Source of the DNA: a virus
Length of the DNA stretch: 64,000 nt
Virus record (IMG/VR): IMGVR_UViG_3300020281_001713
Strand: one strand, 5' to 3'
Shown here: positions 5,270-42,109 of the stretch, in pieces
How positions within the stretch are numbered: position 1 is the stretch's first letter
How the letters are laid out: each line of letters opens with the position of its first letter
Position numbers and translations under genes: made by a program
The notes under the pieces: generated by a model
Databases searched by the model: none
Told to the model about the DNA's origin: nothing
What the model saw: only the letters and a program-made list of their open reading frames with translations

Positions 5270-5479
5270 ATGATATACAATTGGATAAATGAACATATTC
5301 TTAGGAGAAAGATAAAGGATTTTAAAAAAGATCCTTTGAAATTTGCCAAATGGGTAAATGAAAATGTTGATTCTGATTTTTTAGTAGAGAAAAAAGACAA
5401 GGAGGTAGGCGGGCCTGATGGACCAGAACCTACTAGGTTTGGCACTTGGGAAAATAAAGGTAGAGAGATAGATTTCTAA
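5270..5479 (+). CDS. DUF1674 / SDHAF4-like protein
   Basis: C-terminal KEVGGPDGPEPTRFGTWENKGREIDF matches the family GGP.GPEPTRYGDWE.KGR..DF signature. Confidence 0.85.
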   Translation: MIYNWINEHILRRKIKDFKKDPLKFAKWVNENVDSDFLVEKKDKEVGGPDGPEPTRFGTWENKGREIDF

Positions 5480-5988
5480 TGGGTGACGTATTATTATTAA
5501 ATGCTGACGCACAACCTACCAGCTACCTTCCATTGTCTGTAATCAATTGGAAAGAAGCAATTACTTATGTTTGGATGGACAAAGTAGTTGTACTTGATTG
5601 GTACGATGACTGGATGGTGCGTAGTCCAAATTGGGAAACAAAAGTTCCAGCAGTAGTAATGCTAAAACAAATGCAACGACGGCGTGGCCGTCCTAGATTC
5701 TCAAAAACAAACCTTTACATTCGCGACTTATACACCTGCCAATACTGCAACACTACCCACACAAGAAAAGAACTTACAATGGATCATGTTATTCCATTAA
5801 GCCTAGGAGGAAAAACAACCTGGGAAAATATGGTTGCCGCATGTGGTCCTTGTAATACATTAAAAGGCAACAAGACACGTATGAAACCTAAATGTAAACC
5901 TTACAGGCCTGATTACTATGATCTAGTTGCAAAACGTAAACAATTAGATATGCCTATAAAACATGAAGCATGGAGAACATATATTTGA
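5479..5988 (+). CDS. HNH endonuclease
   Basis: VLLLNA..., RDLYTCQYC, LTMDHVIPLSLGG.TTWEN.VAAC..CN..KGN. Confidence 0.9.
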   Translation: MGDVLLLNADAQPTSYLPLSVINWKEAITYVWMDKVVVLDWYDDWMVRSPNWETKVPAVVMLKQMQRRRGRPRFSKTNLYIRDLYTCQYCNTTHTRKELTMDHVIPLSLGGKTTWENMVAACGPCNTLKGNKTRMKPKCKPYRPDYYDLVAKRKQLDMPIKHEAWRTYI

Positions 5989-8531: not shown

Positions 8532-8631
8532 TGGCTTTGGGGGAAGGATTCGAACCTTCACGGTAAATATATTGCAGTATCTTTACCACACGATAAACAG
8601 TCGTGCGTGTCTACCATTCCACCACCCCAAA
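8532..8631 (-). tRNA. Atypical tRNA, anticodon GTT (Asn), 29-nt variable region
   Basis: TTTGGGG TG GTG-GAATGGTAGA-CAC G CACGA-CTGTTTA-TCGTG [TGGTAAAGATACTGCAATATATTTACCGT] GAAGG-TTCGAAT-CCTTC CCCCAAA G CCA. Confidence 0.9.
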
Positions 8632-8639
8632 CTGGTCAA

Positions 8640-9593
8640 CTAGTTTGCAATTACATGCTTACCGTCTATAACTAAAACTTCCCCTGGATCTTCGTTAGTC
8701 ATCAAAGGACCCTTAATAGATGTGCCTTTTTGAATCATACCCATTGGCACAGGACGCTTGTATTCAGGATTGACTAAAGTATCCAAAGCCGCAATCATAC
8801 GAGTCATACCTATGCCGCCGCCAACTCTTGGGAAGAAGTCAAACTTTAAAAACTCTTCTAGTTCTGCTTCTACTCTTTCTTTACCAAATAACTTATACAA
8901 CAGTTGACTATATTCTCCACCTGTAATAGTATGGAAGGTATCACGCATCATTTCTACATCACATGAACGTTCTGCACTGCCTATTGTTTCCATACCTCCT
9001 AATATTACATCAATCTTCTTACTTGTCTCTGCGTTTTCATGTCTACTCATATTCCAAAACGGACTAGTAAACTCTGGGAAATCTGTAATCATACAGCTTT
9101 TATTTTGCTTATACATTCTTACTTCGTGATCTGCTTCCAATTCATCATAAGATCCTAGTCCAAAATGCCACTGCCATTCAGCATAAGTTTTTTCTGTAGG
9201 TTCATCAAAACCTAAATATTCACATAATTCATATTCCATTGTTTTCAGATCATTAATATCTCCTGGCATTTCAAATTCAAACATTGGAAATATTATATCG
9301 TGTCGACCTGGTATTGCATTTGGTTCTTGTCTGTAAGAAGTGGAGACACAAAAAAACCCCTTACTATCGGGGCTACTTAATAATTCGTGTTCCAGCCACA
9401 TTTGGCCTGTTTGTGGCAAAGGCCAAACTTGGCCTGCGTAATTGTACGTTGCTACATTGAATGGATCTTCGCATGCGGCAAGTATTGATAGTCTGTTTTG
9501 TGTATGGACTTCTTCAAAACCTTTGTCCAAAAAAAATGACCTTAAAAGGCCAACTGTTTTTGTAAACTTCGTAGGGGATATTAGTTGCGTCAT
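8640..9593 (-). CDS. Class IIb (Asn/Asp) aminoacyl-tRNA synthetase catalytic-domain-only protein
   Basis: Motif 1 FFLDKGFEEVHT, LPQTGQMWLE, motif 2 SYRQEP...RH..FPMFEFE, ETIGSAER, motif 3 GGGIGMTRM; no N-terminal OB domain. Confidence 0.85.
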   Translation of the reverse strand: MTQLISPTKFTKTVGLLRSFFLDKGFEEVHTQNRLSILAACEDPFNVATYNYAGQVWPLPQTGQMWLEHELLSSPDSKGFFCVSTSYRQEPNAIPGRHDIIFPMFEFEMPGDINDLKTMEYELCEYLGFDEPTEKTYAEWQWHFGLGSYDELEADHEVRMYKQNKSCMITDFPEFTSPFWNMSRHENAETSKKIDVILGGMETIGSAERSCDVEMMRDTFHTITGGEYSQLLYKLFGKERVEAELEEFLKFDFFPRVGGGIGMTRMIAALDTLVNPEYKRPVPMGMIQKGTSIKGPLMTNEDPGEVLVIDGKHVIAN

Positions 9594-10306: not shown

Positions 10307-11500
10307 ATGATTAACAAGGATCCATTTAATAAAGTCTTACAGGACTTAAAAAAGCAAGGTAGGTACAGAGTGTTTAACGACATAGTTCGTGAACGTGGTG
10401 ACTTTCCTAAATCAATTTGGTACGGCCCGTATGCAATTAAAAATATTGTAAACTGGTGCAGTAATGATTACCTCGGTATGGGTCAAAATAAAGTTGTCAT
10501 CGATGCAATGCATACTGCTCTTGATCAGACAGGAAGTGGATCAGGCGGTACGCGAAACATTGGCGGTACTTCGCACTACCACGTAGCATTAGAGCATGAG
10601 CTTGCGAAATTGCATGGTACTTCAAGTGCTTTATTGTTTACAAGTGCGTATGTCGCTAATGAATGGACACTGGTTGCTCTAAGCAAAATCATTCCCAACA
10701 TTATGTTTTTAAGTGATAACTCGAACCATGCCAGCCTGATAGAAGGTATAAGACATAGTGGTGCTCCTAAGGCAAGGTGGAAGCACAATGACCTGAGCGA
10801 CTTAGAAGAAAAATTGCAAGATTGCGTAGACCAAAATAAGGTACCTTGTATCGTATTTGAATCCGTGTATAGCATGGATGGTGACGTAAGTCCAATTGAA
10901 GGTGTCTGTGAGCTTGCCGAAAGGTATAGGGCCATTACATATCTAGACGAAGTACATGCTGTAGGCTTGTATGGGAAAACTGGTGCCGGTATGCTAGATG
11001 AGATCGGTATGAACGGTGGAGTTGATATAGTCAACGGAACTCTCGGCAAAGCGTTTGGGGTGCAAGGCGGTTACATAGCTGGTGAAGGGATTGTCATAGA
11101 CGCAATCAGATCAGTAGCAAGTGGATTTATTTTCACTACCAGTATGAGTCCTGTGATTTGTGCTGGTGCCTTAGCCGCAATTAAATATTTAAAAGATCAT
11201 AATGAATTAAGAGAGCAACATCAATCTAAAGCAAAAAAATTAAAACAAATGTTAAAAGATGTTGACATAGAAGTTTTATCATGTGCTAGTACTCACATTG
11301 TACCTGTTATGATAAGAGATGCAAAACGTTGCAAAAAATATAGTGACGAGTTGCTACATGAATATGGGATTTATATACAGCCCATTAACTATCCTACTGT
11401 GCCAGAAGGTACAGAAAGATTAAGGATCGCACCAACACCACTACACTCTGACGCTATGATGAGCGACTTAGTAGATGCATTGGTTAAGGTTATAAAATGA
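10307..11500 (+). CDS. hemA: 5-aminolevulinate synthase
   Basis: WCSNDYLGM, GSGGTRNIGG, NHASLIEGI, FESVYSMDG, DEVHAVGLYG, GTLGKAFG, QPINYPTVP.GTERLR. Confidence 0.95.
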   Translation: MINKDPFNKVLQDLKKQGRYRVFNDIVRERGDFPKSIWYGPYAIKNIVNWCSNDYLGMGQNKVVIDAMHTALDQTGSGSGGTRNIGGTSHYHVALEHELAKLHGTSSALLFTSAYVANEWTLVALSKIIPNIMFLSDNSNHASLIEGIRHSGAPKARWKHNDLSDLEEKLQDCVDQNKVPCIVFESVYSMDGDVSPIEGVCELAERYRAITYLDEVHAVGLYGKTGAGMLDEIGMNGGVDIVNGTLGKAFGVQGGYIAGEGIVIDAIRSVASGFIFTTSMSPVICAGALAAIKYLKDHNELREQHQSKAKKLKQMLKDVDIEVLSCASTHIVPVMIRDAKRCKKYSDELLHEYGIYIQPINYPTVPEGTERLRIAPTPLHSDAMMSDLVDALVKVIK

Positions 11501-11937
11501 TCGCTGAAAGGAATAATATGAATGTAATTAAAAAATATTTTTATCAAAGTTTAGGCTTATTTTGCGTAGGCATGGCTTATGTTGGCTTTGTAACTCCAGG
11601 AATACCATTTAGTATATTCTTGGTTATCGCGGCATGGGCCTTTGCTAAAAGTTCACCCCGTTTACATGCTTGGTTATACAACCATCCTTGGTTCGGTGAA
11701 TTTTTAACAAATTGGACTACGAAGAAAGTATTTCCAACCAAAGGCAAATATTTTATGATAATTGTTATGTCAAGCACATTAGCATTTACATGGTTTACCA
11801 CAGGCAACGTAAAGGCAGTTCTATACTCAGGCATTTTTATGGCACTAGTAGCAATATGGGCTTGGAGATATCCAGGTTCACTTGAAGAGTACAATCGCAG
11901 AGTAATGAATAAGGAGAGGATAGCGTGGCTACGGTAG
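11497..11937 (+). CDS. YbaN / DUF454 inner-membrane protein
   Basis: G.VTPGIP...F...AAWAFAKSSPRLHAWL.NHPWFG. Confidence 0.85.
   Translation: MIAERNNMNVIKKYFYQSLGLFCVGMAYVGFVTPGIPFSIFLVIAAWAFAKSSPRLHAWLYNHPWFGEFLTNWTTKKVFPTKGKYFMIIVMSSTLAFTWFTTGNVKAVLYSGIFMALVAIWAWRYPGSLEEYNRRVMNKERIAWLR

Positions 11938-42033: not shown

Positions 42034-42043
<10 letters not shown>
41525..42043 (+). CDS. 2OG-Fe(II) oxygenase-like protein
   Basis: LPWHID..RECVLMIPL...INAKIMHG...RIFLQ. Confidence 0.65.

Positions 42044-42109
<66 letters not shown>

Follow-up and report, generated by a model that had tools for sequence, protein, structure and literature searches.

The window analysed here, a stretch of 64,000 nucleotides of viral DNA (IMG/VR record IMGVR_UViG_3300020281_001713), encodes a 100-nt RNA that, judged by its sequence and by comparison with its relatives, is a genuine tRNA under selection, built as a leucine-type class II body that appears to have acquired all of the bacterial asparagine identity elements (G34 U35 U36 and G73) together with U1-A72. 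The tRNA directly follows the gene of a small AsnRS-like enzyme to which it is linked in one direction only, and relatives of this enzyme are fused to, or encoded beside, enzymes of pyrimidine synthesis. The reading that we favour, tentatively and at somewhat less than an even chance, is that the tRNA would be reserved for the enzyme as its aminoacyl carrier or acceptor and not be a routine decoder.

Structure and conservation of the tRNA

The tRNA was recognised by Rfam (RF00005, 50.2 bits against a gathering score of 29, E = 9e-8 over the whole window) and scored 96.3 bits with the family covariance model R1; its parts are located in Table 1. Read from the sequence and the Rfam alignment, it has a 7-bp acceptor stem (UUUGGGG/CCCCAAA) opening with U1-A72, U8 and G9 ahead of a 3-bp D stem with a Leu-type loop, a 5-bp anticodon stem (CACGA/UCGUG) with the loop CUGUUUA, which yields the anticodon GUU and U37, and a 5-bp T stem (GAAGG/CCUUC) with the canonical T loop UUCGAAU. 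G18 and G19, the T loop and the 7-nt anticodon loop appear fully ribosome-competent. ARAGORN located the same 100 nt but labelled them tRNA-Asp(atc), a label that is wrong because the long variable arm displaces the program's anticodon call. The minimum-energy fold of this tRNA as a single sequence was not the cloverleaf (z = -1.6), and the structure therefore rests on comparison with homologues.

For this comparison, a covariance model of the family was built from 38 distinct tRNAs, and covariation and conservation were counted in 94 distinct model-aligned homologues. Paired combinations filled 99.4% of the pair cells, compensatory changes were seen in 19 of 24 pairs, and the three basal pairs of the variable arm all covaried; none of 500 shuffles equalled the observed pairing and compensation. 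U1-A72, G73, G34, U35 and U36 were invariant (94/94), and the pair 2-71 alternated between G-C, C-G and U-A. Position 33 was U in 87 homologues and C in seven, C33 having arisen in both phage groups (that of the window and the cyanophage group), position 37 was U in 81, A in eight and C in five (a pyrimidine in 86 of 94), position 32 was C or U, and position 38 was A or C. Among decoding tRNAs, U33 and the identity of position 37 are almost universal. An invariant triplet flanked by variable positions 32, 33, 37 and 38 is therefore more readily explained if the triplet is read by a protein than if it is read by the ribosome. The variable region always consisted of a U, a hairpin and two further bases, with a total length of 11-37 nt and a hairpin that folds in every member (stem of about 2 to 11 bp); as the arm is always present at such different lengths, the long arm in the window is one variant among many. 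CCA is encoded in the window's phage group and absent from the genes of the cyanophage group.

Much of what an earlier note had read from the window's letters was borne out by these data. All of the tRNA elements it listed are there (the stems, GUU, U1-A72, G73, U37, the 29-nt variable region and CCA), its description of a chimera between Asn identity elements and a class II, Leu/Ser-like body was confirmed by sequence and family comparison, and its argument for selection instead of decay agrees with the pairing and compensation counted across the 94 homologues. It had also called the arm oversized: the presence of a class II arm proved to be conserved, its very long length did not. The search for homologues with covarying arms, which it had proposed, returned the three basal pairs, and the proposed ARAGORN check recovered the full tRNA under a wrong isotype.

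Table 1. Positions of the tRNA, its parts, the enzyme gene and other features in the window, and of related features at other loci (positions without a prefix are those of the window)
Feature	Position	Strand	Source or remark
HNH endonuclease	5479-5988	+	flanks the cassette
PEP carboxykinase-like ORF, shortened, 396 aa	6170-7360	+	flanks the cassette
DUF4278 ORF, 61 aa	8190-8375	-	
Glutamine riboswitch RF01739, 59 bits	8403-8462	-	Rfam; just downstream of the tRNA, ahead of the DUF4278 ORF
Class II-bodied tRNA(GUU), 100 nt, encoded CCA	8532..8631	-	Rfam, ARAGORN, family model
Encoded CCA	8532-8534	-	sequence
Discriminator G73	8535	-	sequence
Variable region, 29 nt: U44, 26-nt hairpin, GU	8560..8588	-	sequence
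Variable-region hairpin, 10-bp stem with one G.A mismatch, loop CUGCAA	8562-8587	-	sequence
U37	8595	-	Rfam alignment
Anticodon GUU (tRNA positions 34-36)	8596..8598	-	Rfam alignment
U33	8599	-	Rfam alignment
AsnRS-like class IIb catalytic core, 317 aa, no anticodon-binding domain	8640..9593	-	PF00152, 2.5e-16
Class I/II aminotransferase-fold ORF, then DUF454 ORF	10307-11937	+	flanks the cassette
tRNA-Thr(UGU)	42034-42109	+	
Permuted two-piece tmRNA, alphaproteobacterial-type, tag ANDNYAPEMAMAA	43535-43887	+	Rfam/ARAGORN
94-nt tRNA(UAU), copies in the phage group	G000:C57:74794-74887; L004:4364-4457; L007:2819-2912		the first lies outside the window
Short DHODH-like gene, examples	L047:3857-4549; G000:C57:75408-76013		giant phages
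Dus gene upstream of an enzyme homologue	L323:5209-6180; L364:5833-6816		Saccharibacteria/Patescibacteria

Origin of the tRNA body and its identity elements

The D arm of the tRNA is nearly identical to that of tRNA-Leu(UAG) of the bacterium with which the phage contig was binned (see below), save for one D-loop U that is missing, and the match to this tRNA-Leu extends to the variable-arm flanks. In other phage genomes, the best matches of the family model outside the family were tRNA-Leu genes (60-68 bits). These likenesses thus point to a scaffold of the Leu type that received the Asn set at its acceptor end and in its anticodon. In bacteria, Asn identity consists of the anticodon and G73, the amidotransferase that acts on Asp-tRNA(Asn) reads U1-A72 as its determinant, and G73 acts as an antideterminant against LeuRS (PMC9976931).

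Compared with the canonical bacterial classes, the window tRNA has the anticodon GUU and the G73 of tRNA-Asn, with a variable region of 29 nt in place of the short class I loop and with U37 in place of A37, the t6A site. It has the D arm and the variable-arm geometry of tRNA-Leu, with GUU and G73, both invariant in the family, in place of a Leu anticodon and A73. The arm orientation of tRNA-Ser and its G1-C72/G2-C71 pairs are absent, and the invariant U1-A72, the variable 2-71 pair and the Leu-type arm flanks all speak against that class.

The AsnRS-like enzyme encoded upstream

The enzyme begins at motif 1 and lacks the N-terminal OB-fold anticodon-binding domain; across the cassette family, the protein encoded beside the tRNA has 265-317 aa. 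An AlphaFold2 model (pLDDT 89.7, confident over residues 1-272) was compared by Foldseek, with the catalytic domains of AspRS and AsnRS ranking top, and the family profile matched AsnRS (4e-16), AspRS (2e-13), AS-AR (4e-7; 3P8T, 3.6e-7) and EpmA (1e-4) among the PDB sequences. When the pocket was aligned with those of three synthetases of the co-binned bacterium (AsnRS, AspRS and LysRS), its amino-acid loop (QTGQMWLE) followed AsnRS (QSGQLYGE) and not AspRS (a Q-S-P-Q loop ending in K-Q), and motif 2, the SAER arginine and motif 3 were intact. The enzyme accordingly carries class II motifs 1-3 and an Asn-type pocket (Q..Q..LE, SAER); curated asnS models gave it 21-24 bits against cut-offs of 343-414. 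It shares the core-only architecture of AS-AR and AsnA and falls outside AS-AR by sequence (PRK06462, 18 bits against 389; 3P8T a weaker match than AsnRS). In PHROGs, the family is PHROG 29758, listed with function unknown.

The C-terminal ~45 aa are not conserved, and the length of this tail did not covary with that of the variable arm (median 11 aa in both classes), the window enzyme being an outlier with 52 aa beyond motif 3. Some distant members (P0055, P0079 and P0107; 33-40% identity) have lost motif 2 or motif 3 arginines and are therefore possibly catalytically dead.

Linkage of the two genes across phages

In the window, 8 nt separate the stop codon of the enzyme gene from the tRNA, which follows in the same orientation. 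The Prochlorococcus phages P-SSM2, P-SSM5 and P-SSM7 encode homologues annotated as 'tRNA ligase', each followed by an 85-88-nt 'tRNA-Asn', which is the sole tRNA of P-SSM2. With the covariance model, the tRNA was found directly after the enzyme gene in 73 of 80 loci of the window's phage group and in all cyanophage-type loci with downstream sequence. In the reverse direction, IMG/VR was scanned with a tRNA-only pattern, which gave 79 new loci, 77 of them with room upstream; in all 77 informative contigs the enzyme gene lay immediately upstream on the same strand, a figure much of which reflects the shared ancestry of related phages. The spacing of 8-50 nt is retained though the neighbours differ between phage families, and the cassette moves as a unit, occurring in Prochlorococcus myoviruses and in this giant phage with different neighbours in each. 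At several loci, the enzyme gene stands among other tRNA genes.

The enzyme also occurs alone. In seven of the 80 loci of the window's phage group (~9%), the enzyme is intact and the tRNA is absent within 3 kb, and a complete 342.6-kb phage genome (IMG/VR) encoding the enzyme has none anywhere. The huge phages LR756501 and LR756508 encode the enzyme (44-49% identity) with the long-arm tRNA(GUU) nowhere in their genomes, and none was found near the cellular homologues (55-62% identity). The linkage, conserved as would be expected of a private synthetase/tRNA pair, is thus one-way and suggests that the tRNA depends on the enzyme and not the enzyme on the tRNA; since intact copies exist without it in cells and phages, the enzyme does not strictly need this tRNA.

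Relatives of the enzyme gene were present in over 500 IMG/VR contigs and in more than 8000 protein clusters at 90% identity; the distant representatives P0107, P0079 and P0033, used as queries, returned no related loci in IMG/VR. Our literature search found no paper on the pair, its sole trace being the entry 'tRNA ligase' in a gene table of 2010 (PMC3037559).

Fusions and gene neighbourhoods of the enzyme family

Nine protein clusters are fusions of enzyme relatives with dihydroorotate dehydrogenase (DHODH; 53-56% identity), and one is a fusion with OMP decarboxylase (44% identity). The gene order DHODH-like, enzyme, tRNA was seen in five contigs (L008, L011, L231, L234 and L235), and in a tRNA-less giant phage (G001) a 231-aa DHODH-like gene lies directly downstream of the enzyme, in the place of the tRNA. 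Short DHODH-like genes of this kind (231-243 aa) occur in giant phages, the one of the window included (C57:75408-76013; Table 1); they score only 57-64 bits on PF01180, and their substrate is therefore uncertain. P-SSM2 and P-SSM7 both carry pyrE.

Cellular homologues were found in Saccharibacteria and other CPR, Rickettsiales (Bandiella, Midichloriaceae), Aureispira and Flavobacteria. In Bandiella, the enzyme gene is the first of a series that continues with pyrF, a PRT-like gene, a DHODH-like gene and prs (PRPP synthetase), with an amino-acid permease two genes upstream, and in Midichloriaceae it adjoins pyrF and a pyrE-like gene. Five cellular carrier genomes all lack pyrB, carB, pyrC and asnS, and all five have gatB. 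The CPR genomes examined are likewise without the early pyrimidine genes, and pyrF was not found in them. In two CPR genomes, the gene upstream of the enzyme encodes a dihydrouridine synthase (Dus) and is not a pyr gene (Table 1), in one of them (L323) with an unannotated 153-aa ORF in between.

The enzyme is most likely adenylate-forming, with an Asn- or Asp-like substrate, and would work with DHODH. Given the fusions of its relatives to enzymes of pyrimidine synthesis, the pair may constitute an enzyme-tRNA module instead of a spare decoder. The family may also explain why late pyrimidine genes are retained in Rickettsiales that lack carB, pyrB and pyrC.

Genomic setting

The window lies within a 335-kb contig (36% G+C, ten tRNAs) that is most simply explained as the genome of a giant T4-like marine phage; canonical tRNA-Asn is absent from this contig. 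A related 342.6-kb IMG/VR genome has terminal repeats. The contig (C57 of G000) was binned with a 2.36-Mb bacterial MAG, which has a one-piece tmRNA, a canonical tRNA-Asn and AsnRS; its placement there probably reflects a binning artefact or an infected cell. A T4 late-promoter motif (TATAAATA) stands just after the tRNA, but the motif is not enriched in the window (8 occurrences against 9.6 expected), and therefore no promoter is claimed. The phage group has a second tRNA with an inserted variable hairpin, a 94-nt tRNA(UAU) with a variable region of ~24 nt in an otherwise class I-like body (Table 1). Genome scans used the smaller alignment A4, the 47-sequence alignment A2 being too diverse for scanning.

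Possible roles of the tRNA and the enzyme

We propose, as the leading although still tentative explanation, that the tRNA is co-transcribed with the mini AsnRS-like enzyme as its private RNA partner and would be esterified, most likely with asparagine, either by the enzyme directly or by a host non-discriminating AspRS and GatCAB, whose determinants are exactly the nucleotides of the tRNA that never vary. The charged tRNA would then act as carrier or acceptor in the reaction of the enzyme, which we infer to be tied to dihydroorotate and pyrimidine synthesis and not to routine decoding of AAY codons; the charging and its amino acid, the binding of the tRNA by the enzyme and the nature of the reaction are all parts of this proposal. 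Because U33 and position 37 drift while the AspRS/GatCAB determinants are kept, a dedicated carrier fits better than a routine decoder. Weighing against the proposal are the intact enzymes without the tRNA in cells and at ~9% of the phage loci, the ribosome-competent appearance of the elbow and the anticodon loop, and the Dus gene, not pyr genes, beside the enzyme in CPR. We know of no chemistry that feeds pyrimidine synthesis from an aminoacyl-tRNA.

A more specific form of this proposal, which we consider quite unlikely, is a tRNA-dependent entry into pyrimidine synthesis, in which asparagine would be built on the private tRNA and converted by the enzyme to dihydroorotate. In hosts without AsnRS, asparagine would exist only tRNA-bound, and the phage tRNA could be the scaffold on which host AspRS and GatCAB make it. 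The enzyme, with ATP, might turn this Asn into dihydroorotate, for example by a CO2-dependent ring closure (speculative chemistry), and the product would pass to the adjacent or fused DHODH, so that carbamoyl-phosphate synthetase, aspartate carbamoyltransferase and dihydroorotase would be bypassed.

The two genes could instead form an orthogonal translation pair, a possible but doubtful explanation and the main alternative, in which an anticodon-blind AsnRS would recognise the tRNA by U1-A72, G73 and its class II arm and charge it with Asn. The charged tRNA would decode AAC and AAU, giving the phage a supply of Asn-tRNA that is independent of the host's indirect pathway or resistant to tRNA-targeting defences. 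In its favour, the enzyme has kept motifs 1-3 of the AsnRS type as well as the pocket motif, the tRNA bears the published Asn identity set (PMC9976931), the linkage is tight, the tRNA is the only one of P-SSM2, the 335-kb phage contig has no canonical tRNA-Asn, and the elbow and the T loop are canonical. The explanation stays serious because the tRNA looks ribosome-competent and the enzyme resembles a working AsnRS core. However, fusions with DHODH and OMP decarboxylase and a place in pyr operons are unexpected for a translation enzyme, and a pyrimidine at position 37 (86/94) and an unfixed U33 are unusual for a decoder of ANN codons. Moreover, an enzyme reading only U1-A72 and G73 might also charge tRNA-Gln, and the lengths of the variable arm and of the enzyme's C-terminal tail do not covary.

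It is unlikely that the two genes have independent functions, the enzyme being a tRNA-independent metabolic enzyme (asparagine-synthetase-like or dihydroorotate-forming) and the tRNA an odd, host-charged phage tRNA-Asn, neighbours through a common variable tRNA island and a shared transcript. Archaeal AS-AR is a precedent for such an enzyme (3P8T match, 3.6e-7), the enzyme exists intact without the tRNA, and its gene stands among other tRNA genes at several loci. Yet the tRNA was never found away from the enzyme gene, the spacing within the cassette stays at 8-50 nt while the neighbours change, and a phage that could copy a host tRNA-Asn has instead rebuilt a Leu body that is kept across divergent phages.

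A recoder charged by host SerRS or LeuRS through its class II body, which would insert Ser or Leu at Asn codons, is very unlikely. In its favour, the long arm and G73 are common to tRNA-Ser, the body is Leu-like and the nematode nev-tRNAs and allo-tRNAs are precedents (PMC5389517). However, G73 counts against charging by LeuRS, for which it is an antideterminant (PMC9976931), Leu-type and not Ser-type features are seen in the D arm and in the two unpaired bases that follow the variable arm on its 3' side, the 1-72 pair is U-A and the 2-71 pair varies (G-C, C-G, U-A). Substituting Asn throughout the proteome would also hurt the phage's own proteins. We rejected both the Ser and the Leu version on identity-element grounds. 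Some phage tRNAs evade tRNA-targeting defences, and the altered flanks of the anticodon in this family recall them; combined with the location of the tRNA, which closes the transcription unit 8 nt past the stop codon, this might suggest a decoy that absorbs a host anticodon nuclease, or an RNase P mark that stabilises the 3' end of the enzyme mRNA, which is nevertheless highly improbable given that the invariant G73, U1-A72 and triplet, the encoded CCA and the canonical elbow exceed what a processing signal needs.

Among the roles listed in the earlier note, that of a private substrate of the neighbouring synthetase remains the leading idea in view of the linkage in 77 of 77 contigs and of P-SSM2, which has no other tRNA. 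The neighbour itself, which the note calls a synthetase, is probably not a simple translation enzyme, considering the DHODH and OMP decarboxylase fusions, the pyr neighbours and the intact tRNA-less copies. A non-ribosomal aminoacyl donor gains weight from the variation of U33 and position 37 around the invariant anticodon triplet, and recoding of Asn codons to Ser looks unlikely from the Leu-type D arm and arm geometry and from U1-A72. If the tRNA and the enzyme do cooperate, they may represent the first aminoacyl-tRNA carrier linked to nucleotide synthesis or, alternatively, a naturally occurring orthogonal aaRS/tRNA pair that is blind to the anticodon and could be useful for genetic-code engineering. 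The cassette is present in cultured Prochlorococcus phages, and the pair is therefore directly testable.

Comparison with known systems

The window tRNA has GUU, G73 and U1-A72 in common with the canonical class I tRNA-Asn(GUU) of bacteria and phages, and differs from it in its 29-nt variable region and 3-bp Leu-type D stem, which stand in place of a short loop, in U37 where the canonical tRNA has A37/t6A37, and in a U33 that is unfixed in its family. With bacterial tRNA-Leu it shares the D-arm sequence, U44 and the variable hairpin with two unpaired bases, whereas it has G73 and not A73, U1-A72 and not G1-C72, the anticodon GUU, and U37 and not G37. The nematode nev-tRNAs and the allo-tRNAs (PMC5389517) likewise join a long-arm body to the anticodon of a class I amino acid; however, they retain Leu or Ser acceptor identity and mistranslate, while the window tRNA appears to have exchanged its acceptor identity, too, for that of Asn and is accompanied by a dedicated enzyme gene.

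The enzyme resembles AS-AR, AsnA, EpmA/PoxA and HisZ in being a catalytic core without an anticodon domain. Archaeal AS-AR, a core-only paralogue of AsnRS, is said, in work by Roy et al. from 2003, to make asparagine and not to charge tRNA. Like this AsnRS-derived, metabolite-making protein, the window enzyme is a core, but its sequence is nearer to true AsnRS than to AS-AR or EpmA, and unlike the window enzyme's family, none of AS-AR, AsnA, EpmA/PoxA and HisZ is known to have a private tRNA or DHODH fusions. An unusual tRNA that is genetically tied to one enzyme, as here, is also found in ProRSx/tRNA-ProA and PylRS/tRNA-Pyl, and in Staphylococcus a non-proteinogenic tRNA-Gly isoacceptor serves as a metabolic acceptor instead of supplying the ribosome, a role to which we liken the one proposed for the window tRNA. 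In contrast to these three systems, the pair described here, known from its sequence, combines such a tRNA with an enzyme that has no anticodon-binding domain and belongs to a family tied to pyrimidine genes.
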